Positions 387 through 10,776 of a stretch of DNA of 64,000 nt are shown piece after piece; the stretch's first letter is position 1; every line of letters starts with the position of its first letter. Origin of the DNA: Candidatus Bathyarchaeia archaeon. GTDB taxonomy: Archaea > Thermoproteota > Bathyarchaeia > 40CM-2-53-6. The notes beneath the pieces were generated by a model. That model had not been told where the DNA came from. It made no database searches and worked only from the letters and a program-made list of their open reading frames with translations. The stretch lies in contig JBEKFP010000003.1 of the NCBI GenBank assembly GCA_050013255.1, forward strand, positions 128,001 to 192,000, in the 5' to 3' direction. Position numbers and translations under genes: made by a program.

Positions 387-816
387 ATTATCACCTTGAA
401 ATTTCACTGATAATAAGGGTGCTGCCTTTCGATAGTTCACCATGCTCACGATGTCGAATGAACAGATGATTCGATAAGGCATTCAAGCTTCCTCCCGCAC
501 AATATATTGTGCTGAAGTCCCACCCCCACGCCCCACGACGTGCACCTGTTGCGTTAAGGGCTAGAATGCGGCTAGTCGACTTCACGGGCTTCGAAAGAAA
601 CCGACTTTATGCGGAAGGAATACGCCAAAGTCGAAAAACGGTTCTTCGTATGAGTGTTGTCCGTTAATGCTATTTGGGCGTGTGGAGTAGTGATTGCGTT
701 CGACGGGAGAGTGGCCCTTGGTCTGGTTGCAAACGACCTGACGAAGTGGTCTAACCTTCATATGAAAACATGCGGGGGTTGCCAAACCTTCGCTTGTTTA
801 ACTTGGCTAACAATCC

Positions 817-873
817 GTGGAACCCTCATAGAACCCACGATATTGGTGGGTTCGTATCCCACGGGCCCCACCA
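817..873 (+). repeat. att-like tRNA-3'-end repeat S1 (type B)
   Basis: GTGGAACCCTCATAGAACCCACGATATTGGTGGGTTCGTATCCCACGGGCCCCACCA; near-identical to 3121-3177 and 10134-10190; T-arm, acceptor strand and CCA. Confidence 0.9.
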
Positions 874-1057
874 AAAATTTATTAATTTCACGAACCCGCA
901 ACAATCACGGACAATTCCCTGATGGCCTTTTGACTCGTTGCTTAACTTTCGGTTTCACGAAATTAACCGACATCAGTCGAAGAGTTCAGAGAACCGTAAC
1001 CCTAGAAAGTAGTCAGATGACTCAAGAAACCCATATATTCTCAGTGTTGGTGAACTG

Positions 1058-2941
1058 TTGAAAGGGCTTGACTTGCTCAAGTCGCTTTTCATGCTAGTTC
1101 TAATCCTTTTCACATCAAGTGTGGTCTATGTTGCTGGTTCAACCCCGTCTTCGCCGAATCTGACAGTCGCAGAGATATACCCAACATGGAATGAGCAGGC
1201 GTCTACTCCAATCCTTCCGGGTTCGAAGGAGCAATTCCGTATCTACGTTCTGGTGACTAATTCGGGTGGCTACGAACCGCGGAACGCCACCTTGAACCTC
1301 AAGGTCTCATGGCAAGGAGCAAATGCCCAGGGACCAACCGAATATCAAGACAGCGTTGATGTGAAAAGTGGATCTGATGCTTTTGCCTACTTCGGACCGT
1401 TTGTAGCGGATTCGCCCACGAATATGACGGTGCTGGCCACTATTAACCCGAATCGCACCATTCAGGAATCAGATTATTCTGACAACGGCATGAGTGCCAC
1501 GTTCCACGTTGGTAAACTGTTTCCAACGGTCTCCCTTTTATCCGCTGGAACTCTTTGGCACGAAAACGAGACGCCGTCATTTTACTATACCTCTAGCGTT
1601 AGTTCTAGTGGTAACTATGAGAATCGGCTTCACGTCACGATGTCCCGCAACGGAGAAATTGTTGCAGTCCGCTCGGATTCTGGGCACATCAGTCTTTACA
1701 AGAACGGGACATTGATTTACGATCTACAGTCTACAACATTCTCGGATTCTGCTCTTTCGGATTCCGGAAAATACTTCGCCGTGAAGACTGACTCCATCAA
1801 ATTATTCGATGTGGATCAACTTGCTATGGGCAACAAGGCCCCGCTTGCTTCTGTCTCCGGAATGACAAAACTGGGGATGCTATCCTTCTGGAGGGTCGCG
1901 GTATCTGACAATGGCACGTTGGCGATTGCTGGATTCGCGAACTCAATCTTGAGCTTTGGTATCCTCAAAGTAATCGGCGACCCACAAAGATTCCAAGACT
2001 TTGGGACGGGAGTCTCGTGGGGGAAAGTTTTCGACGGAGATTCCCCGCATTTCGGTCCGAACTTTTATTATCTTATAGAAAGCCTAAGCTTTGACGACAC
2101 TGGTCAACTTCTGGTCGGACTAAGTGGATTTTTTGTTGGCAACCCCCATTCGCTGTCAAGACTTTACGGACCTAATCCATGGTTATACCTACTCGATTCT
2201 CTTGGAAATGTTGTATGGACTGGAAACGTTTCATCACGCGTCTCCGAGGATAGTGCAATTTCCTCCGATGGAAAGGCCCTGCTCACAGCCACGGATGACG
2301 GCCGTATCCATTACTTCGATAGATCAACAAACACCAATTTCAGTTTCTTCCTGGGGTTCAACACAGGGCCGAAGGGAAGCATAGGGACGAGCAATTCCCA
2401 GTTTGCGATTTCTCCTACCGGCGACTATCTAGCTGTAGCGGATTCGTCGAGCATCTACATCTTGGACGCAACCGGGGCACCGCTCTTCATGTTCCCCATG
2501 TCAAATGTCACTAGTCTCGCCCTTGGCGGAGGCTATCTCGTGGCTGGAAGATTAGGCGGTGCCGAGGAAATTTCTCTTTGGCAACCTGTTGATCAGGCAA
2601 TCGTTGAAGCTCAATCCCTCATAAACCAGGCACTTGGTGCGGGAGCCAACGTGACCCAAGCCGCGTCCATTCTGGCTTCAGCACAGGAGCAGAGGCGAGA
2701 GGGTGAATGGTACAAAGCATATTCGTATGCTGAAAGCTCGATTATTACTGCCAATCAGGCGTTGGCTTCGAGAACACTTTTCGCTACAGCTACAACAAGC
2801 TCATTAACACTGCCCAGCGGGCCGCCTGCCGAATTGCTCCCGATCGCAGTCATCTTGCCAATTGGAATTGCAGTGGTCATTCTTGTTGCAGTAACCTTGC
2901 TTATTACTGTCAGAAGGAAACGTCGGAAGACCGCCGAATAG
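1058..2941 (+). CDS. Cell-surface protein: signal peptide, CARDB-like Ig domain, WD40/YVTN-like beta-propeller, C-terminal TM anchor
   Basis: PNLTV...INPNRTIQESDYSDN CARDB signature; repeated AISxDG-like blades; hydrophobic C-terminus followed by RRKRRK. Confidence 0.75.
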   Translation: MKGLDLLKSLFMLVLILFTSSVVYVAGSTPSSPNLTVAEIYPTWNEQASTPILPGSKEQFRIYVLVTNSGGYEPRNATLNLKVSWQGANAQGPTEYQDSVDVKSGSDAFAYFGPFVADSPTNMTVLATINPNRTIQESDYSDNGMSATFHVGKLFPTVSLLSAGTLWHENETPSFYYTSSVSSSGNYENRLHVTMSRNGEIVAVRSDSGHISLYKNGTLIYDLQSTTFSDSALSDSGKYFAVKTDSIKLFDVDQLAMGNKAPLASVSGMTKLGMLSFWRVAVSDNGTLAIAGFANSILSFGILKVIGDPQRFQDFGTGVSWGKVFDGDSPHFGPNFYYLIESLSFDDTGQLLVGLSGFFVGNPHSLSRLYGPNPWLYLLDSLGNVVWTGNVSSRVSEDSAISSDGKALLTATDDGRIHYFDRSTNTNFSFFLGFNTGPKGSIGTSNSQFAISPTGDYLAVADSSSIYILDATGAPLFMFPMSNVTSLALGGGYLVAGRLGGAEEISLWQPVDQAIVEAQSLINQALGAGANVTQAASILASAQEQRREGEWYKAYSYAESSIITANQALASRTLFATATTSSLTLPSGPPAELLPIAVILPIGIAVVILVAVTLLITVRRKRRKTAE

Positions 2942-2973
2942 GCGCCTGGATGCCGAGAGGTTATCAGCCGTAA

Positions 2974-3076
2974 AGCGAGAGTCGGGCCGTCAATAACTAC
3001 CGTTCGTGTGCGTTAGAGCTTCGAAAATGGCCATTAGTCCCACAAATCGTGGGTTCAAATCCCTCCGGGCCCACCA
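2974..3076 (+). repeat. att-like repeat S2 (type A) with conserved upstream arm
   Basis: ATTAGTCCCACAAATCGTGGGTTCAAATCCCTCCGGGCCCACCA; ungapped homology to 9251-9352 and 6039-6123. Confidence 0.9.
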
Positions 3077-4086
3077 CCTTTGGCAACTTCAAGACTGCAA
3101 CTGACAATATTGCCGACCTAGTGGAACCCGCATGGAACCCACGATATTGGTGGGCTCGTATCCCACCGGCCCCACCATTTAACGAACCGACCCCACTCAG
3201 TGAACTAGCGGCATTTGCTTTCTATCTGAAGAAGAACGGCTACCGGGATTCCACGATTAGAGGAACCGTGCAGGCTCTAAAGGCGTTAACGCATCACGTT
3301 AACCCCCTAGACCCTGAATTAGTGAAAGGCTACCTAGCTAGAGCAGACTGTTCCATTAATCGAAAAGGGAAGGTTTGCGAGGACCTAGACCGGTTCTATA
3401 AGTACAAAGGTATTCAGTGGGCCAAACCGAATTATCAACGAGTAGATACTCTGCCTTTTGTTCCCACAACCCAAGAAGCAAACGACCTGATAGCCTGCCT
3501 TGGCCCGAAAATGTCCGTGTTCGCTCTTTTGCTGAAAGAAATAGGTTGCCGGTTCAATGAGGGTTTCGGCCTGAGATGGCAAGACATCAACGTAGAAAAT
3601 AGTACCGTAACGATTACTCCGTTGAAGGGGTCCTATGCAAGGCAAATGAAGATAAGCCCCAAACTAATGGGACTACTCAATAGCCTTCACAAGAAATGGC
3701 CAACATACGTTTTCAGAAATCATAAAATTGAATTGTGGAAATCCTCTAAGCGATTTAGAACCGAATACATGTTTCAGAGACGCAGAGCCTCAATCAAGCT
3801 GAATCAGCCCAGACTAAACCTAGTCAGTTTCAAGAGCCTACGACATCACTACGCATGTAGGCTCTATGAATCAACGAAAGATATTCTCTTTGTTCAAAGA
3901 CAGATGGGACATAGAAGCCTGTCAAACACGGTTCGCTATACTCGGATGGTCAATTTCGATGCTGAAGACGATTTCATAGTGAAAGCGGCCAAAAATAAGA
4001 GCGAAGCGGAACCTCTGATAGAAGCGGGATACCAATACGTCGTTACCACGCCGGAAGGTTACATGTTATTCAGTAAGAGGAAATAA
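3049..4086 (+). CDS. int: Tyrosine recombinase/integrase, probably the C-terminal part of an att-split SSV-like integrase
   Basis: GCRFNE (R), TPLKG (K), FKSLRH (KxxR), MGH and TVRY (Y) catalytic motifs. The first 43 codons are att-repeat sequence, so the true start is uncertain. Confidence 0.9.
   Translation: MGSNPSGPTTFGNFKTATDNIADLVEPAWNPRYWWARIPPAPPFNEPTPLSELAAFAFYLKKNGYRDSTIRGTVQALKALTHHVNPLDPELVKGYLARADCSINRKGKVCEDLDRFYKYKGIQWAKPNYQRVDTLPFVPTTQEANDLIACLGPKMSVFALLLKEIGCRFNEGFGLRWQDINVENSTVTITPLKGSYARQMKISPKLMGLLNSLHKKWPTYVFRNHKIELWKSSKRFRTEYMFQRRRASIKLNQPRLNLVSFKSLRHHYACRLYESTKDILFVQRQMGHRSLSNTVRYTRMVNFDAEDDFIVKAAKNKSEAEPLIEAGYQYVVTTPEGYMLFSKRK
3117..3177 (+). repeat. att-like repeat S3 (type B), left copy of the 61-bp direct repeat
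   Basis: 60/61 identical to 10130-10190 (C3155 vs T10168). Confidence 0.95.
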
Positions 4087-4160
4087 CCGAGTTGATAGAG
4101 GCGGGGTTCGACTTCATCTTGCAGAAAGATGGGTTAGCATATTTTAGAAAACGGAAGTAA
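4077..4160 (+). pseudogene. Relic C-terminal tail of a second integrase
   Basis: The -1 frame encodes EEITELIEAGFDFILQKDGLAYFRKRK*, paralleling the integrase tail SEAEPLIEAGYQYVVTTPEGYMLFSKRK*. Confidence 0.8.
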
Positions 4161-4163
4161 GAC

Positions 4164-4225
4164 CTTGATAGCGCCTCTTGATGGCGACTCATCACGACCA
4201 TAATGGCGCTAATAATGCCGATAAT
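4164..4225 (+). repeat. Four imperfect ~13-bp direct repeats downstream of int
   Basis: CTTGATAGCGCCT, CTTGATGGCGACT, CATAATGGCGCTA, AATAATGCCGATA. Confidence 0.5.
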
Positions 4226-4387
4226 CGTATACATAAATTCCCACCCATTTCTACTTACCGATTAACATTGTTTTGGAATTTCTTAGTAGAGACATGGAGT
4301 CTCGCCAGGGGCACAATGGTTGAACCGCCTGTTAGCAGAAAACACTTGTGATGCCATAAGGACTACAAGGACTTTATTCTTGCGAAG

Positions 4388-4852
4388 TTGGGAGAGCTTG
4401 TAGATTACATCGAAGACCGAGATGGTCTCCGAGTCGTTTTGGGCTACTACTACATGACCAGTACCAGCGTAGACGCATTGCGAAGTAGAAGATTGTTTGT
4501 AGGATTCAAGGAACAGTTAAGACAGTTGGGCATTGAGATGGTGATTGTGGAGAAGCGGAATGATAAGTCTGGGAACATTGACCCTCGTCTGATCTCCGAT
4601 GCTTATAGACGCCTGCTTATTGAGAGGAAAGCGCCTTCAAACTTGGTTCTTGTGTGCGGTGATAAGGACTATGAGCCGATGCTCGTCGATTATGAGAAGC
4701 AAGGTCGAAGAGTAGCTGTATGCTTCTATCAACCGGTGGGCGGGGGCGCATCGATAGACCTATTGACCATCAGTGGAGCAGAATTCATCGAATTCACCAA
4801 TCCGAAACAATCTTGGACGCTTCAGAAATGCTCTCTTTTGCCGAGCTTTTGA
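4388..4852 (+). CDS. NYN/LabA (PIN-fold) domain protein, apparently N-terminally truncated
   Basis: K..IDxxL..D and LVLVCGDKDY motifs; first DxxN motif missing, in-frame TGA at 4349. Confidence 0.65.
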   Translation: MGELVDYIEDRDGLRVVLGYYYMTSTSVDALRSRRLFVGFKEQLRQLGIEMVIVEKRNDKSGNIDPRLISDAYRRLLIERKAPSNLVLVCGDKDYEPMLVDYEKQGRRVAVCFYQPVGGGASIDLLTISGAEFIEFTNPKQSWTLQKCSLLPSF

Positions 4853-4936
4853 CCTCCCAAAACATCGCTTTCCTTTACCGAGCAACATGAAGGAAGGCAG
4901 ATAAGTCATAAATAGACAGCGGTAAACCTCCTCAAT

Positions 4937-5734
4937 ATGAAGCACGTTCTGGTTCTTGTTACTGCGTTTCTTTTGCTCATCGTGACCCTACCTTCGATAA
5001 GGGGCCAAGTGAACAATCCGGTAGCTTATCCACTGTTAAACCAAGTTACTGTTGACGGAAAATACACCAGTCCAAGGGAATGGAACGATACGATTGTGTT
5101 CGAGGCGGTGGCGGGATTGGGCGAGACGGTGTACTTCAGCGCAAAGTACGATTCAACTTACCTCTACACCATCTGGGATTTCCCTGAGTGCAAAACATCG
5201 TTCACAGGCAGCGACACAAAGGGTGCAAACCAAGTATTACTCTACTTAAATCCTCTCAACAAGCGTTCAGCCACTGTTGATAATACCATGTACCGCATCG
5301 CTGCTTGGGAGTACGGTGCCCCCGTCGCTCGTGTCTCGGGCTCTCAGGGCTTGACAGGAGGCGGATGGGCAGAATGGGCTCATATAGACGGCCATTTCCT
5401 CGCTGCCTTGCAGTACACCTCTTCGCCACACTCTCAAACTCCCCATTTTGTCCTCGAACTTCGCATCGCATTAACATTCGCTAATCTGAAGTCAGCGACC
5501 ACAAATAGCAGCATCGGAATCGCCTTAGGATGGGTGGACAACTTTGGGAATGGCTTCGAGGTCGATTATCCAAGCGACTATAATTACAAGGATCCGAGTA
5601 CTTGGGGAACTATGTCGTTCTCTCACATGGCAGTACCAGAATTTCCTTTGAGTCCCACAGTGCCGTTCTTGGTCACGATTTTTGTCACAATACTCGCATG
5701 TAAGATAGCAAGGAAGAAACTCGAGGGGCGGTAA
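4937..5734 (+). CDS. Secreted DOMON/CBM9-like protein with PEF-CTERM sorting signal
   Basis: Signal peptide; VTVDG...EW and KYD..YLY motifs; C-terminal VPEF + TM + basic tail. Confidence 0.75.
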   Translation: MKHVLVLVTAFLLLIVTLPSIRGQVNNPVAYPLLNQVTVDGKYTSPREWNDTIVFEAVAGLGETVYFSAKYDSTYLYTIWDFPECKTSFTGSDTKGANQVLLYLNPLNKRSATVDNTMYRIAAWEYGAPVARVSGSQGLTGGGWAEWAHIDGHFLAALQYTSSPHSQTPHFVLELRIALTFANLKSATTNSSIGIALGWVDNFGNGFEVDYPSDYNYKDPSTWGTMSFSHMAVPEFPLSPTVPFLVTIFVTILACKIARKKLEGR

Positions 5735-5987
5735 GAACTCATCTTCGTTCCGCTGATCAATCAGCAACGTTATTTGTGGTCTAACCCCGACACTGTTGGG
5801 CAACCCCAACCGAGTCTGTTTACTGGAAACCAGTACTACATGAAGCTCTTCGACTCGTTTCAAAGTGTGCGTGATATGCTCTATGCCGGAATACTAAACG
5901 CTACTATGAGTATTTATTTCGCTGAAAGAAACAATCAATGAAAGTACACGACACGTGCTAGCCGTATTCAGATACAGCGTTTTGTAG

Positions 5988-6009
5988 CTCAATAATTGAG
6001 GGTTCGTAC
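5988..6009 (+). repeat. Partial, degenerate att-like site (type C-like)
   Basis: CTCAATAATTGAGGGTTCGTAC resembles the CTCAATATTGAGGGTTCGTAT core of S6; its T-arm start lies 102 bp before that of S4. Confidence 0.55.
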
Positions 6010-6038
6010 CGCTTCGAGCTATCTTTCTCGTGTCCTTG

Positions 6039-6123
6039 CATTGATAGCTACCGAAGTTTCTCGTGAATCTAGTTGGAGATGTCATTAGTCCCACGAATCG
6101 TGGGTTCAAATCCCACCGGCCCC
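6039..6123 (+). repeat. att-like repeat S4 (type A)
   Basis: ATTAGTCCCACGAATCGTGGGTTCAAATCCCACCGGCCCC; upstream arm aligns ungapped with S2. Confidence 0.9.
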
Positions 6124-6212
6124 TATTAAGAAGACTTTGTCGTCTGTTCACAGCCATTTTCGCTTGGAAATGTTCCGTCATAATTCATTTAATCGGGTTT
6201 GTAATGGTTCGG

Positions 6213-6587
6213 TCAGAACTGAGATTCGGAAAACATTCTCTCGAAAGAGGCTTGAGGTAAAGGTTTGCCTTTTGACAACAGTAACAACCGCTGTCTGAAC
6301 CTGTCGGTCTTCTTACCAGATATTACCAAGGCTACGAGGGCTATGATAGTCGAGAAGCCGAGAGAGAAGAGAAAAAACCCAACTGTTAATGTTGACCTGG
6401 CATTACTCAGCCAGGAGCTGGTCAAGCCCCCGAGTGAAAATATGAAAACAATCATGATAATATTGATGGCTTTATCAATCGTCAACGTTCGTGATTCTAA
6501 CGCAGCCCGAAGCACGTCCAGTTGCCATTCTGCTTTTCGGGAGGGCACGCCTCTAGTAGAACGCTTCCTCGCTGCCATCTTAACCAA
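6213..6587 (-). CDS. Small 2-TM membrane protein
   Basis: Two hydrophobic stretches. Confidence 0.5.
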   Translation of the reverse strand: MVKMAARKRSTRGVPSRKAEWQLDVLRAALESRTLTIDKAINIIMIVFIFSLGGLTSSWLSNARSTLTVGFFLFSLGFSTIIALVALVISGKKTDRFRQRLLLLSKGKPLPQASFERMFSESQF

Positions 6588-6745
6588 CTGAGAATAGATC
6601 TCTCTCCCTCCTAAATATCATGTAGCATTGAAGTTGCTTTGCTCGCCACCGGAATTCGACATTAGGGTACGTGTGTACGTTTCGTAAATTGGAAAGACTC
6701 ATTTGGGGCCCATTCGTTATTCTACTTGATTCGAGTGACTAAGCG

Positions 6746-7576
6746 TTGGAATCCACGCCAGAATTGGTTCGCAAGTTTGCACCTGAGATATCGTTCAGCA
6801 AGAACGAACCATATTTCCCTTGTCCGATTTTCTTCAGTGGTGCTGACATAGTTAGTAACAGGGAGAAGTACGAACCGCTTACGCCAGACCAGAAAAGGAA
6901 TTTGATCTCTTGCTATTATCACGTTTCTCGTTATGAATCTCATACTGCATACGAGTACTGGTACTACTATGTTTACAACGATTATTCTGGAGGATGGGAC
7001 TTGGGTGCTCCAGACATACACGACCACGATATGGAATTTGCGATAGTGTACGTCGATAATGCATCGGGCACTGTATACGCTCTAGCATTAAACCAGCACC
7101 ATTGGCGAAATTGGGTTTGGATGTCAAATGATTTGAAAGTGTTTGCCGAAGAAGGAGGGCACGGTTTATTCCGAAAAAGGACTCTACTTGACTCTTGGAA
7201 ACCTGGTGGCCTCACAATCAAGGTAGACCCAAAGGAATCGGTTGAATCACTCCGCAACAAATTCATTGATCCCGAACCTGCGAATCTCATGGAAAATGAC
7301 GGGACAATAAAGGGCCAAACAGCGATTTTTCTGGGAGCGTGGGCTAAACCAAAGGTTCCGTGGGTTCGACAAGAGTATGTCTTTCCTATTTCGCAACTTC
7401 TAGCAGACGCTGATAAAGACAAGGCACGCATGCTTTCCGCAGCTCCTCGTGCTATGATGTACCCAAGAGAGATTACGCTTAGTATTCCCTACAACAAACC
7501 TACACGAAAAGAGAACTTGGATGAAGCACTTCGGCTCCAACTGATTTCGGATCATCAATACAAAGCCATGCTATGA
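6746..7576 (+). CDS. Vps62-like domain protein
   Basis: FAP.I.F..NE.YFP, YWYYY.YN and HDHDME (cf. HxGDWE) motifs. Confidence 0.55.
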   Translation: MESTPELVRKFAPEISFSKNEPYFPCPIFFSGADIVSNREKYEPLTPDQKRNLISCYYHVSRYESHTAYEYWYYYVYNDYSGGWDLGAPDIHDHDMEFAIVYVDNASGTVYALALNQHHWRNWVWMSNDLKVFAEEGGHGLFRKRTLLDSWKPGGLTIKVDPKESVESLRNKFIDPEPANLMENDGTIKGQTAIFLGAWAKPKVPWVRQEYVFPISQLLADADKDKARMLSAAPRAMMYPREITLSIPYNKPTRKENLDEALRLQLISDHQYKAML

Positions 7577-8398
7577 CAGCTTACACTTGGGACAAAGCCA
7601 TGTCACACCTTGGGGTCTCTCAGGGTGATTCTTATTGTCGAGTTTGCCTTCCGGCCCCCGGAAGTCATGGTATAATTCACATTCCTTTCTGAAAGCATCC
7701 TCAGGAGACTTTGAGTATTCGAACTTAAACCGATCATATCTGCCTATGTACTCCTTCAAGCGAGCCTTCACATCGACATCAGTGCGACTCATAAATTGAA
7801 CATAGAAAGTCTTGCCCTTCTTGAGCCCGAGAACATATACTCCAGCCGAAACATTAGAAACTTCCTTGTCAATCGTGCCTTCATCAAGCGGAAACGAACC
7901 CCTCAAACCAGTACTCCGGCGTCGCTCCTCAGTTAAGAAAGACAGGTCGTCTTGACTTTCTCGTGAATCCCTTCTTACGAGAGCTAGGATCCCGGCAACT
8001 AGCAGCAAGAGACCCCCAACATAGAAACCTGAAGCAACTATGACGCCGATGATTCCGCATATCACTAGACAGATGCCCCAGTTTCTGGGCTTGCTCTTAA
8101 CAAGGACTGCTGCAACAAGTCCAATGATAGAAATCAGAGCGGAAACTGCGGCCTGCGCATAGAGAGTCGTTGGGTTTCCGGAGAAAGCCTCCATGAAACC
8201 TCCGAGGAAGACCAATACAGGTACGAATAGAAGCCCCAGCACTCCACCAATCAAACCGAGAATAAGTTCAGGCATCCGACTAATGGGGGGTTTAGATGCA
8301 GCTTGTGATGACTTCGCATTCCACATGTCTGCTCCACATTTCGGACAGAATCTCATCCCAACTGCAGTTGATTCGCCACAATTCGGACAAAAGGGCAT
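7571..8398 (-). CDS. Zinc-ribbon + 4-TM (DUF4064-like) + GIY-YIG-like domain protein
   Basis: FCPNCG...FCPKCG; four TM segments; GVYVLG..FYV, R, E and DN motifs and terminal CPKC. Confidence 0.65.
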   Translation of the reverse strand: MPFCPNCGESTAVGMRFCPKCGADMWNAKSSQAASKPPISRMPELILGLIGGVLGLLFVPVLVFLGGFMEAFSGNPTTLYAQAAVSALISIIGLVAAVLVKSKPRNWGICLVICGIIGVIVASGFYVGGLLLLVAGILALVRRDSRESQDDLSFLTEERRRSTGLRGSFPLDEGTIDKEVSNVSAGVYVLGLKKGKTFYVQFMSRTDVDVKARLKEYIGRYDRFKFEYSKSPEDAFRKECELYHDFRGPEGKLDNKNHPERPQGVTWLCPKCKLS

Positions 8399-8520
8399 TG
8401 GCTGAACCTCGCATCTAACCCTCTAAGCCTTCGTATTTCAAACTATGCAAGACGGCCATTTCCTTACCGCATGCGAAATCTTAAGATGCGGATTGATAGA
8501 CACGCAATACTCGGTAAGAC

Positions 8521-9216
8521 TTGCCTTTCTGTATGAAATGTGGAAGCGAGTTTGCTGCTGGCGTGAAATTCTGTCCATCTTGTGGCACGCCAGTGACCTC
8601 ATCAGATGCTTCAAGTCATCAAGAACGTTACGGCACTAGAAACGTCCAACAGAGCGCCAGTCCAATTTCTGTGCCGTCAAAACCAAGGAACCTGTCAGCA
8701 AAACTGCTGGCCTTGTTATTCATTGTGTTCATCTTGGGTGTAGGACTGGGGGCTGGTTCGACTCACAGCGGAACGACAACTGTAACGGAGACGACTCAGA
8801 CCACGTATACGTTGCCAATCATAGTCACGGCAGAAACTAATGTTACAGAATACAAAACTGCAATGTCAGCCATATTCTCCGAATTTCACAACATAACGAC
8901 TCAGACCGCAGATAACTTTCATGCGTTCAGTATCGGGCAGATGTCTCGAACTGAATTAATCTCATTCGTGAGCCAGCAGAAGGACAACCTCAAAGTTCTG
9001 ACGGAACGCACCCTCAGATTACACCCTCCCCCAGCCTTCGCCGAAGCCCATGTCCATGTCGTCAACGCCTTGAGCCTTTGCTACTCAGCGTTTACGCTTT
9101 ATGAAGATGGCCTTATCCAGAACAACCCATCGTTGATCACAGAAGGCAACGACTTCGTTAACGAAGCGACAAACGAACTGCAAACCGCTACGTCAATCCT
9201 CAATTCCAACACCTAG
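8521..9216 (+). CDS. Zinc-ribbon + single TM + Thr linker + extracellular helical bundle
   Basis: FCMKCG...FCPSCG; TM segment; PPPAFAEAH helical domain. Confidence 0.7.
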   Translation: MPFCMKCGSEFAAGVKFCPSCGTPVTSSDASSHQERYGTRNVQQSASPISVPSKPRNLSAKLLALLFIVFILGVGLGAGSTHSGTTTVTETTQTTYTLPIIVTAETNVTEYKTAMSAIFSEFHNITTQTADNFHAFSIGQMSRTELISFVSQQKDNLKVLTERTLRLHPPPAFAEAHVHVVNALSLCYSAFTLYEDGLIQNNPSLITEGNDFVNEATNELQTATSILNSNT

Positions 9217-9250
9217 TCGCTTTTTCCTAATGTCTCAAGTTTCATTTTCT

Positions 9251-9352
9251 AGCGAAAGTCGAGCCATCAATAACGAGTGTGCGTAGGCGTTCGGGCTCTG
9301 ACATTGGTTATTAGTCCCACGATTTGTGGGTTCAAATCCCACCGGCCTCACC
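9251..9352 (+). repeat. att-like repeat S5 (type A)
   Basis: ATTAGTCCCACGATTTGTGGGTTCAAATCCCACCGGCCTCACC; ~100-bp ungapped homology with 2974-3076. Confidence 0.9.
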
Positions 9353-9441
9353 GCTTTCGTGGGTATAATCAGCAACGCCATAGATGGAAGTGGTTCATAC
9401 GGCGTGAGAAGTATGAACCGATTGCCAAATGTCGGAGCTAT

Positions 9442-9720
9442 TTACATAGAGCCAACGAATTTCTTCGCAGCCTCAAGAATTGCCTGTTCCTGTTGTTTGA
9501 CCATGTCTTCCAACTCTTTTGCCTTTGCCGGGTCAAATTTCGGCAATGCTTTGGTTATCTTAGCGGCAACTTGTCCAAGCGATTGTACATTTGCGTGAAA
9601 TTCTCTCTTCGTGTTCGATGTAGTAAGTTTCCGAAGCGCCTCTTGGAATTCCCGCTTGAATGCCTCGAAGTCTCCAATTGCCCCAGTTTGTGCCAAGCTC
9701 CACTCCTCAGCGAACCTCAC
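9442..9720 (-). CDS. Small helical hypothetical protein
   Basis: 92-aa charged, amphipathic ORF between S5 and S6. Confidence 0.5.
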   Translation of the reverse strand: MRFAEEWSLAQTGAIGDFEAFKREFQEALRKLTTSNTKREFHANVQSLGQVAAKITKALPKFDPAKAKELEDMVKQQEQAILEAAKKFVGSM

Positions 9721-9824
9721 TCATTCGTGAATTATAAGAAGTTGGTTCGTCTCTTTATTTTATATCACTTTGCCTCCGCTTAACTCTGCGCCTTATCTCA
9801 TTGTTTAGTTTACAGCAAGCAATC

Positions 9825-10247
9825 ATGAAAGAATTGAACTGCCCAATGTGTCTAAGCCCGTTATCGTTAGCGAGCTTAGAGCAAATTTGGCGAGGCCCAG
9901 ATTTCGAACATCGGTTAACGTACTACTGTCATCTGAACCTACTACTGCAATCTGAACCTCTAGGTCAGCATGCGGAGAGGTTTAAGATATTTGATATTGA
10001 GTGCAAAATTCAGCGAGACAATTGCGCGAGGGACTTACTTGACACTCGAACCCTCAATATTGAGGGTTCGTATCCCTCCGGCCCCTTCACGTTTCGAAGC
10101 TTTAGGACTGCGGCTGACAATGTCGTCAGCCTAGTGGAACCCGCATGGAACCCACGATATTGGTGGGTTCGTATCCCACCGGCCCCACCACTTTCCTCTT
10201 TTCGAAAACCGTCAGAGTCCAGAACGCGAGGAGGATTAAATAGTTAA
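9825..10247 (+). CDS. Candidate int(N) fragment (CPxC...YxC N-terminus) reading through S6 and S7
   Basis: Ends ...LVEPAWNPRYWWVRIPPAPP, in the same repeat frame as the integrase. Confidence 0.45.
   Translation: MKELNCPMCLSPLSLASLEQIWRGPDFEHRLTYYCHLNLLLQSEPLGQHAERFKIFDIECKIQRDNCARDLLDTRTLNIEGSYPSGPFTFRSFRTAADNVVSLVEPAWNPRYWWVRIPPAPPLSSFRKPSESRTRGGLNS
10047..10089 (+). repeat. att-like repeat S6 (type C) with a perfect 24-bp palindrome
   Basis: CGAACCCTCAATATTGAGGGTTCG followed by TATCCCTCCGGCCCCTTCA. Confidence 0.85.
10130..10190 (+). repeat. att-like repeat S7 (type B), right copy of the 61-bp direct repeat
   Basis: Ends GGCCCCACCA, followed by the pyrimidine tract CTTTCCTCTTTT. Confidence 0.95.
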
Positions 10248-10266: not shown

Positions 10267-10533
10267 CTACTTTGTCCTGTACACCCTGTCATGGTGTTCA
10301 TAATCTTCGAGAATGACGGTCTTTCGTTGTTCGTCGATTGAAAAGAGGAGGACAAAGCTGCCGAAGTGGGCCCTCCTCATTCCGCCGAGTGGAAAGCGCA
10401 TTGGCTTGAATCTATGCGGGTCTTCGAGTATCTCCTCTATCTTCTTGGCTATGACTTCCATTTGATTACGATTCCTTTTGGCGAGCTTCTTGAAAATTCT
10501 GTCGACGTGCTCTCTTGCCTCTAAGGCGTACAT
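10267..10533 (-). CDS. relE: RelE/ParE/YafQ-family toxin
   Basis: 88-aa basic protein, I.EI...P.RFKP....RRAH...FVLLF...HHD; coupled to the upstream antitoxin. Confidence 0.8.
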   Translation of the reverse strand: MYALEAREHVDRIFKKLAKRNRNQMEVIAKKIEEILEDPHRFKPMRFPLGGMRRAHFGSFVLLFSIDEQRKTVILEDYEHHDRVYRTK

Positions 10534-10776
10534 TCATTTCAAGCCGTATTTTCTCTTGAAGTCGCCGGCGTTGCCGATCCTGATAATTGGTTCTTTGTGT
10601 ATCTTGTCGAGTTTCTTCAGGTATTCGGGCCTTACCTCAGACTCTAGGACGAGCACCTTGTACTGCTTGGCCATTTCGTTTATCGCCTGTGATTTGTCCT
10701 TCAAGCCGTACTGGGCCTTGAGGACGTTGATGACCCTGTTAGCTTCTTCGTCTATCTCAACGATTGCTTTGACCAT
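10534..10776 (-). CDS. Antitoxin (DUF2683-like)
   Basis: MVKAIVEIDEEANRVINVLKAQYGLKDKSQAI...EVRPEY; adjacent to the toxin. Confidence 0.75.
   Translation of the reverse strand: MVKAIVEIDEEANRVINVLKAQYGLKDKSQAINEMAKQYKVLVLESEVRPEYLKKLDKIHKEPIIRIGNAGDFKRKYGLK

Follow-up and report, generated by a model that had tools for sequence, protein, structure and literature searches.

Tandem copies of a tRNA 3' end in a peat Bathyarchaeia archaeon probably mark an integration hot spot of accreted and decayed mobile elements

When short copies of a tRNA 3' end divide a piece of chromosome into small gene-bearing units, and a tyrosine integrase gene lies among them, is this an archaeal counterpart of an integron, or is it what remains of mobile elements that inserted one behind another at the same tRNA gene? 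The question is raised by a 64,000-nucleotide stretch of DNA from a Candidatus Bathyarchaeia archaeon (the window; C3:128001-192000 of a genome of 2.46 Mb in three contigs, labelled G000), in which an array of this kind ends at position 10190. A preliminary description of the window had proposed an integron analogue with tRNA-derived sites. Our analysis does not bear this out and indicates instead, with a probability of about 0.8, that the locus is an integration hot spot where mobile elements accreted in tandem behind one tRNA gene and then decayed, a reading that fits all parts of the array. The metagenome runs that contain this DNA are from peat and wetland, and a search of assembled genome contigs with the integrase as query retrieved close relatives only from 'Candidatus Bathyarchaeota' metagenome-assembled genomes.

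A 26-nt consensus, with up to three mismatches allowed, matched six of the seven full sites in the window, all on the + strand (848, 3051, 3152, 9328, 10064 and 10165), and gave no match in 100 dinucleotide-preserving shuffles. The seventh, at 6100, was recovered with a repeat finder (family D1, 6083-6123) and a fuzzy search, as it does not have the ACCA tail; the repeat finder also returned the partial copy at 5995-6016, as family D6. Seven co-oriented copies of T-arm and acceptor strand plus one partial copy had been described before; both types of search confirmed them, positions included, and the sizes given for the segments in between are correct. Likewise, the statement that none of them has a recognisable tRNA 5' half holds within the window, where ARAGORN called no tRNA over the whole 64 kb. 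The repeats also extend beyond the T-arm. A 57-nt family recurs at 817, 3121 and 10134 with 93–95% identity, a 107-nt pair (2974/9251) is 77% identical, and a 135-nt pair (3046/10059) is identical at 113 of 135 positions, 58 of them within the final 60 nt; a near-perfect repeat of 57–60 bp flanks a unit of 7,013 bp.

The origin of these copies is a genuine tRNA gene of the same organism, located 5.5 kb upstream of the window (C3:122293-122472; L025:6293-6472). It is intact and 180 nt long, starts with GGGGCCG and ends with ..GTGGGTTCAAATCCCACCGGCCCCACCA, with the acceptor pairing GGGGCCG/CGGCCCC. The array begins at this gene, and 11 further co-oriented copies of its 3' end follow downstream on the + strand, for a total of 12 sites across 15.9 kb; the eight distal ones lie inside the window, and four further ones (three of the class B described below and one partial) between the tRNA and the window. 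The derivation of the sites from a tRNA of this organism, anticipated in the preliminary description, is therefore established by the matching end of this gene, and their nature as attachment (att) junctions of tRNA-targeting tyrosine integrases is supported. Orthologues of the tRNA in five genomes have an invariant acceptor stem and T-arm, a gene for a CCA-adding enzyme and a kinase-like gene precede it in the orthologous loci too, and the upstream synteny extends to L026, L027, G018, G013, G016 and G017. The gene has about three introns; the five orthologues can be aligned, and covariation is seen in a long hairpin that precedes the variable loop. Because of these several introns, it is missed by ARAGORN and Rfam, and the latter, run on the array and on the genuine tRNA, made no tRNA call and reported only T-arm fragments, scored under tmRNA. 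ARAGORN finds 30 tRNAs in the entire genome, and many intron-rich ones are probably missed. From splicing in silico, we tentatively identify the target as tRNA-Pro: with two deletions, proline is the sole amino acid common to the five orthologues, GGG being the favoured anticodon, and with one deletion the identity is ambiguous.

All copies share the core GTGGG-TTCxxAT-CCCAC and the acceptor strand, and the differences among them lie to the left of the core. Class A has a ..GTGGAACCCGCATGGAACCCAC-GATATTG- arm and a TTCGTAT loop; class B has a ..ATTAGTCCCAC-GAATC- arm and the TTCAAAT loop of the tRNA itself; and class A' (10062, with a relic at 5998) forms a perfect 24-nt palindrome. The left arm of every class carries CCCAC, the inverse of the T-stem GTGGG, 5–7 nt away. 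The sequence left of a core is the right end of the element to its left, and each arm class therefore stands for an element family of its own. Exact class A or B sites occur in 13 of the 23 genomes of the genus that we scanned, often in clusters, versus none with the reversed pattern as a control. One site of the window (S5; the sites are numbered as in Table 1) is a hybrid: its left arm and TTCAAAT loop are those of class B, and its right half CCCTCCGGGCCC and the following spacer resemble the A' site at 10062, with the CCCTCCGG.CCC half-site of A' on the right side. The composition of S5 shows that different site classes have recombined, with a crossover that probably fell in or near the T-loop. 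Orphan class A/B-like copies are also present in G000 far from the target tRNA (C1:122348, C1:124704, C1:414030, C1:954191, C1:1306687 and C2:295579), and may be secondary insertions or chromosomal rearrangements between sites.

It could be argued that the sites are functional, either as 3' halves of tRNA genes that are split and trans-spliced or as tRNA-like RNAs of another kind, given that this genome has many intron-rich tRNAs overlooked by standard tools and that archaeal split tRNAs tied to the insertion of mobile elements are known (PMC3293823, PMC3218864). We give this idea almost no credence, as the left arms contain neither a tRNA anticodon stem nor a variable region, the acceptor ends of several copies are ruined (..CCCCTTCA, ..GGCCTCACCG and ..GACTCCACGAG), one copy is translated as the 5' end of the integrase, and the Rfam matches are confined to T-arm fragments. 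The separate proposal that the class B units are complete tRNA-like genes, prompted by a change between S5 and S9 that looked compensatory, was unsupported by more copies and was dropped.

The intact integrase of the array matches PF00589 (Phage_integrase; 70 bits, E=2.8e-19) as well as PHROG integrase families. Its best solved relatives are the Pyrococcus XerA (4a8e, E 2e-9), IntI4, XerH and XerA, the match to IntI4 being limited to a catalytic C-terminal stretch (residues 214–260), and the SSV1 integrase chain was absent among the solved-structure matches at E<=0.01. These comparisons place the enzyme, as far as sequence can tell, nearest to the XerA type and not in the SSV1 or pT26-2 clades. 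The reading frame runs through the class A core (..WWARIPPAPP followed by FNEPTPLSELAAF..; also written ..EPAWNPRYWWARIPPAPP followed by FNEPTPLSELAAF), such that the core contains codons 1–19 with the GTG start. This GTG is the first base of the 57-nt core, in frame, and is kept in all three A copies (817, 3121 and 10134); behind the genuine tRNA, the same frame continues into a relic of the C-terminal part of the gene, int(C). The integrase thus belongs, functionally, to the archaeal type with an att site inside the gene. Database searches returned 41 homologues, mostly open reading frames (ORFs) of 190–320 amino acids, and the five that we examined (P0001, P0004, P0024, P0035 and P0039) all start inside or at a tRNA 3' end and are therefore integrated copies. 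No relative was found among viral contigs searched with the integrase.

An integrase of this type should be divided by integration, and the preliminary description had indeed called it split. This is not so at its present position, where the gene is whole because an A-type arm with the in-frame GTG, from a class A junction that is probably older, stands directly before it in a tandem A-A arrangement. We withdrew a candidate 424-amino acid gene split into 9825-10190 and 3178-4086, which join in frame, as the start of the 9825 ORF is a zinc-ribbon gene with a 19-bp duplication. That 122-codon ORF (9825-10190) is in frame with the integrase and its first third is the decayed zinc-ribbon gene; longer proteins containing this Int(N) ORF were searched for and none was found. 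A credible int(N) would comprise 19 codons (from GTG 10134), or up to ca. 43 (from S10) if the stretch from A' onward is coding.

Other copies of the integrase occur in different settings. A clean single element of ca. 9.4 kb is inserted at a tRNA-Arg(CCG) of the same genome (G000 C2:250597-260077) and flanked by a 30-bp perfect direct repeat; its int(C) reads out of the tRNA, a short ORF enters the far repeat in that frame too, and both ends encode SGVRIPPRPP. A third copy lies beside an odd tRNA at C3:28267-29357. In a relative, at L026:9900-10910 (P0001), the int(C) ORF gains an in-frame ATG from the tRNA intron (MERSWGQRSWVQIPPAPP..), which results in a 320-amino acid ORF despite the inserted element. 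No direct repeat was found for the L082 element.

The preliminary description held that only one segment encodes an integrase; this is correct for intact genes, and relics exist in addition, a weak one at 509-651 and clearer ones upstream of the window. In all, the array contains three further integrase relics, which belong to two families. Relic 1 (C3:122446-122607) lies directly behind the genuine tRNA and consists of 54 amino acids that share 70% identity with the integrase and include a stop codon; a 94-nt stretch behind it matches window positions 4277-4380 at 77% identity. Relic and match together, behind the tRNA, therefore represent a deleted copy of a family-A element. Relic 2 (C3:127017-127247) is a frame that leaves a truncated B site (..AAGLRW/HDLRDYF..LGH..YLRKEYLKV) and reads as a recombinase in which boxes I and II are fused at GLRW/HDLRDYF. 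It has short copies in G015 and G018 and is 31% identical (E 1e-7) to a recombinase-like ORF of 499 amino acids in G018 that starts 60 nt behind an att site. Relic 3, at 509-651, shows 78% identity over 46 nt with C3:127200-127245, and its peptide aligns with NFFRGEYKKV of the same G018 ORF. Moreover, S9 is followed by TCGTGGGTATAATCAGCAAC, identical at 19 of 20 positions to the spacer before the 499-amino acid ORF, that is, to the left end of the large-recombinase element. Relics of two kinds are present, and therefore at least two integrase families used this core. The class B sites may have been made by the enzyme family to which the 499-amino acid ORF belongs. This ORF follows a minus-strand two-gene module bracketed by two att sites 620 nt apart (L076:5266-7489; G018:C2:1967266-1969489) and is missed by Pfam Phage_integrase at E<=0.01; PF00589 has no match in G018, although this distant recombinase-like ORF is present there. 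Decayed islands with their own integrase remnants were what the preliminary description had named as evidence against its proposal, and they occur in part, in the form of the three relics and the element end at S9.

The units between sites hold from none to four ORFs on both strands, some of them three or four, and they encode mainly secreted or membrane proteins, with no viral hallmarks. The segments of 0.1 kb had been counted as separate units. However, they correspond to a double core with a spacing of 100–101 nt that is found at 3049/3150 and 10062/10163 and recurs in another genome (G015:C17 125795/125695), and whose translation is conserved in metagenome contigs; these pairs are part of the att/int 5' region of family A, and not empty cassettes. 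Homologues of the cargo genes exist elsewhere, and no sites were found within 1.5 kb of those of the zinc-ribbon pair (G013, 81%), of the NYN gene (G003 and G004) or of the gene at 3-482 (G016, G005 and G022). Residues 3–57 of the zinc-ribbon relic match 30 metagenome loci, where the readable ones are stand-alone proteins of ca. 55 amino acids with four cysteines, and a T-arm was present within 600 nt in none of 29 of these loci. Deletion in silico of either copy of the 19-bp duplication leads to a stop at about codon 40; the duplication shifts the gene into a frame that runs through two att sites, creating a misleading ORF of 140 amino acids. Peat metagenomes contain this small zinc-ribbon family (ca. 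55 amino acids, CPxC..CxxC) in abundance. Immediately after the last site, on the minus strand, the window contains a ParE-family toxin gene (PF05016) with a DUF2683 partner (10267-10776); copies 91–96% identical occur at other loci in G021, G004 and G014, so the pair itself is mobile.

Comparison with relatives showed different content at the orthologous tRNA, as had been predicted. In G018, the interval from the tRNA to DnaJ has three sites only (tRNA, B and A) and unrelated content; the L026 locus has a single long element, and the L027 locus a 28-amino acid relic. After S11, from DnaJ onward, the genes show synteny with those that follow the orthologous tRNA of G018. Where G000 and G018 are homologous, the right end falls exactly at S4, and on the left the homology starts inside a unit. 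Another region of G018 (L044+L045; G018:C2:452001-490000) contains eight tRNA-end sites in 38 kb, one of them from tRNA-Lys, and is a patchwork of pieces of 0.1–2.2 kb that are 79–98% identical to loci across all three G000 contigs.

Varying content among relatives would also be expected of an integron analogue, where a single integrase would capture, excise and rearrange small non-autonomous cassettes at tRNA-derived sites, and the same can be said of the intact integrase gene, which lies within the array and has a site as the place of its start codon, of the several units without a trace of integrase, and of the exchange between site classes at S5. Nevertheless, we consider this explanation very unlikely. 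The array contains relics of at least two integrase families and of element ends, its 0.1-kb units belong to the att/int region, genes lie on both strands with three or four in some units, and the left ends of homology do not fall at sites, nor are the cargo homologues elsewhere flanked by them. Additionally, S1, S2, S9 and S10 are degenerate to varying degrees, as relics would be, and the integrase is closest to XerA, with IntI4 matching over a short catalytic stretch only. The relics, the mixed orientation and the homologues without flanking sites likewise speak against the small integrase-less units being non-autonomous cassettes shuffled in trans, as the preliminary description had suggested.

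Is the array still active? Read-level evidence came from assembled Logan contigs of four runs from 2017–2020, which stop at each repeat. All four contained every unique segment, free of any difference and covered about as deeply as the flanks; the array is thus fixed in the sampled population. The contig joints listed have at most 31 nt on the shorter side (for example, 23–31 nt at 9576→16648 and 972→15804, in L048 coordinates) and give no firm information on excision; they probably reflect shared k-mers or other organisms. These data bear on the possibility that accretion is accompanied by ongoing mobilization in cis, with the integrase still excising composite blocks (the 7,013-bp unit or larger A-to-A blocks) and remnants travelling as cis-mobilizable elements. 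The intact integrase ORF, the near-perfect 57–60-bp repeats (58/60), which suggest a recent event, the resemblance of S5 to a deletion product between B and A' sites, and bacterial precedents (PMC5704250, PMC3146451) are all in its favour. We regard it as unlikely, because unique segments are 100% identical in the four runs at flank-like depth (a weak argument, since contigs hide rare variants), no joint exceeds 31 nt on the shorter side, and searches of viral and metagenome collections revealed no free form. It is quite unlikely that the array works as an archaeal platform for accretion and shuffling, where the restored integrase would recombine A, A', B and tRNA cores and delete, excise and rejoin integrase-less units, S5 being a footprint of this activity.

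Tandem accretion followed by decay would proceed as follows. Several families of integrative elements would target the 3' end (T-arm and acceptor) of one multi-intron tRNA gene, each insertion regenerating the tRNA and placing a duplicate of the tRNA 3' end at the far junction. Elements arriving later would enter the tRNA or existing copies, giving a co-oriented tandem array in which the part left of each core is supplied by the right end of the preceding element, hence classes A, A' and B. Most elements would later have lost their integrase along with a large part of their DNA and been reduced to short remnants between att sites, which encode mostly membrane or secreted proteins of unknown function. 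A single XerA-like att-in-gene integrase is still intact, restored by the tandem A-A junction. Several points weigh against this history. The enzyme responsible for the class B sites is identified as a candidate and not with certainty. The units 846-3049 and 6100-9326 and an upstream CitMHS unit have no trace of integrase at either end, and these three would presumably derive from larger elements. Neither a free circular nor an unsplit family-A element was found in our searches, and the order of segments rests on the assembly, as short contigs break at every repeat. Finally, a survey by Badel et al. found no tandem insertions among 73 att-in-gene integrases (PMC7253208), which makes a tandem of such elements unusual for the class.

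Table 1. Sites, integrase genes and cargo genes of the array in the window (D numbers are repeat families)
Feature	Position	Strand	Evidence and remarks
Relic 3, C-terminus of a large tyrosine recombinase (ends ...DFMRKEYAKVEKRFFV, stop)	509..651	+	Weak on its own
S4, class A	817..873	+	57-nt core GTG GAACCC..CCCAC GATATTG GTGGG TTCGTAT CCCAC and acceptor end; D3, 93–95% to copies at 3121/10134
Secreted, membrane-anchored repeat protein (predicted), 627 aa	1058..2941	+	Sub-threshold beta-propeller match only; no PHROG match
S5, B/A' hybrid	2974..3080	+	D4, 77% to 9251-9357; D2, 84% to 10059-10193
Tyrosine integrase, intact	3121..4086 (321 aa, GTG 3121) or 3049..4086 (345 aa, GTG 3049)	+	PF00589, PHROG
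S6, class A core	3121..3177	+	First codon GTG 3121, nearest in-frame start to the integrase
NYN-domain protein	4388..4852	+	PF01936, E=3.9e-9
Predicted secreted protein, 265 aa, no family	4937..5734	+	
S7, partial, A' left-arm relic (ATTGAGGGTTCGTA..)	5995..6016	+	D6, 86% to 10059-10080
S8, class B, no ACCA tail (CATTAGTCCCAC GAATC GTGGG TTCAAAT CCCAC CGGCCCC)	6083..6123	+	Repeat finder, fuzzy search
Cargo block, four ORFs in alternating orientation	6213..9216		6213-6587(-), 6746-7576(+), 7571-8398(-), 8521-9216(+)
Zinc-ribbon/DUF4064 membrane protein	7571-8398	-	
Zinc-ribbon membrane protein	8521-9216	+	
S9, class B, long left arm, degenerate acceptor (..GGCCTCACCG)	9251..9376	+	D4; followed by 20-nt relic of large-recombinase element
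92-aa ORF	9442..9720	-	Weak DUF7809 match; 93% identical copy in G017 at an unrelated locus
Decayed small zinc-ribbon gene	9825..9962	+	19-bp tandem duplication 9917-9935 / 9936-9954 (D9)
S10, class A', 24-nt perfect palindrome CGAACCCTCAATATTGAGGGTTCG, degenerate acceptor ..CCCCTTCA	10045..10089	+	101 nt before S11
S11, class A core, final array site and right border repeat of the 7,013-bp unit	10134..10190	+	Consensus search, D3

For annotation, our results are a warning that, in these genomes, closely packed tRNA-end repeats and the small units between att sites are scars of elements, rather than tRNA genes or a gene-capture system. The locus is a well-resolved archaeal case of tandem accretion and decay at a tRNA gene, from uncultured peat Bathyarchaeia, and, if confirmed, it could serve for studying target switching and the survival of att-in-gene integrases.

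Among known systems, integrons share with this locus a tyrosine recombinase beside an array of short sites that separate small gene-bearing units. Unlike in integrons, there is no attI/Pc platform, the tRNA-derived core before the gene being the one found elsewhere in the array; in place of attC hairpins, the sites are double-strand cores of tRNA origin that have palindromic arms; and the units are multi-gene, of mixed orientation and partly pseudogenised, with relics left by several integrase families. Judging from the ORFs and the site sequences, and without a run of IntegronFinder, we found neither an IntI with attI and promoter nor promoterless, co-oriented, mostly single-gene cassettes bounded by attC. 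What we found is the set of features of an accretion array: an intact target gene with co-oriented repeats, an integrase and integrase relics at att junctions, and conserved flanks around differing content.

The ssrA islands of Dehalococcoides are tandem att-flanked islands, many without an integration module, with the insertion placed in the T-loop (McMurdie et al. 2011, PMC3146451). Similarly to our locus, they have an intact, essential tRNA-like gene at one end, co-oriented 3'-end repeats downstream, content that differs by strain, and conserved element-derived sequence just left of each repeat (PMC3146451); the islands without integrase have been proposed to be fixed or cis-mobilizable (PMC3146451). 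They differ in that the host here is an archaeon, the target a tRNA and not the tmRNA, and the enzymes tyrosine instead of serine recombinases; one integrase here has the att site in its own frame, and the units are smaller (0.1–3.2 kb) and more decayed. More generally, integrase-less units that keep their att sites have been described in bacteria as cis-mobilizable and formed by accretion (PMC5704250, PMC3146451). The site-specific accretion of ICEs and IMEs (elements that are integrative and either conjugative or mobilizable) and of cis-mobilizable elements (CIMEs) at tRNA genes of Streptococcus and others (PMC5704250) shows the same succession of integration, decay to an att-flanked remnant and new insertion into a resident att; unlike there, our locus is archaeal, has no conjugation or mobilization genes, and at least two integrase families have used one core.

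The closest parallel for the integrase itself is found in the archaeal type I 'suicidal' (SSV-type) integrases, such as those of SSV1, pT26-2 and pTN3, with att in the gene (PMC7253208, PMC8371274). As in these, att lies inside the integrase ORF and matches the 3' part of a tRNA, and int(C) reads out of the tRNA; on the other hand, the enzyme is nearest to the XerA type, and the split-off N-terminal part has at most 19–43 codons. The system has been associated with hyperthermophilic archaea (PMC8371274), whereas the host here belongs to peat and wetland Bathyarchaeia. The tandem A-A junction matches the state modelled in Fig. 8 of PMC7253208, and, by restoring a whole integrase, it represents the intermediate postulated by that survey. 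In all, although accretion of this kind is already known, the locus is noteworthy for an archaeal att-in-gene integrase whose gene was restored at a tandem junction, in a mesophilic Bathyarchaeia host.

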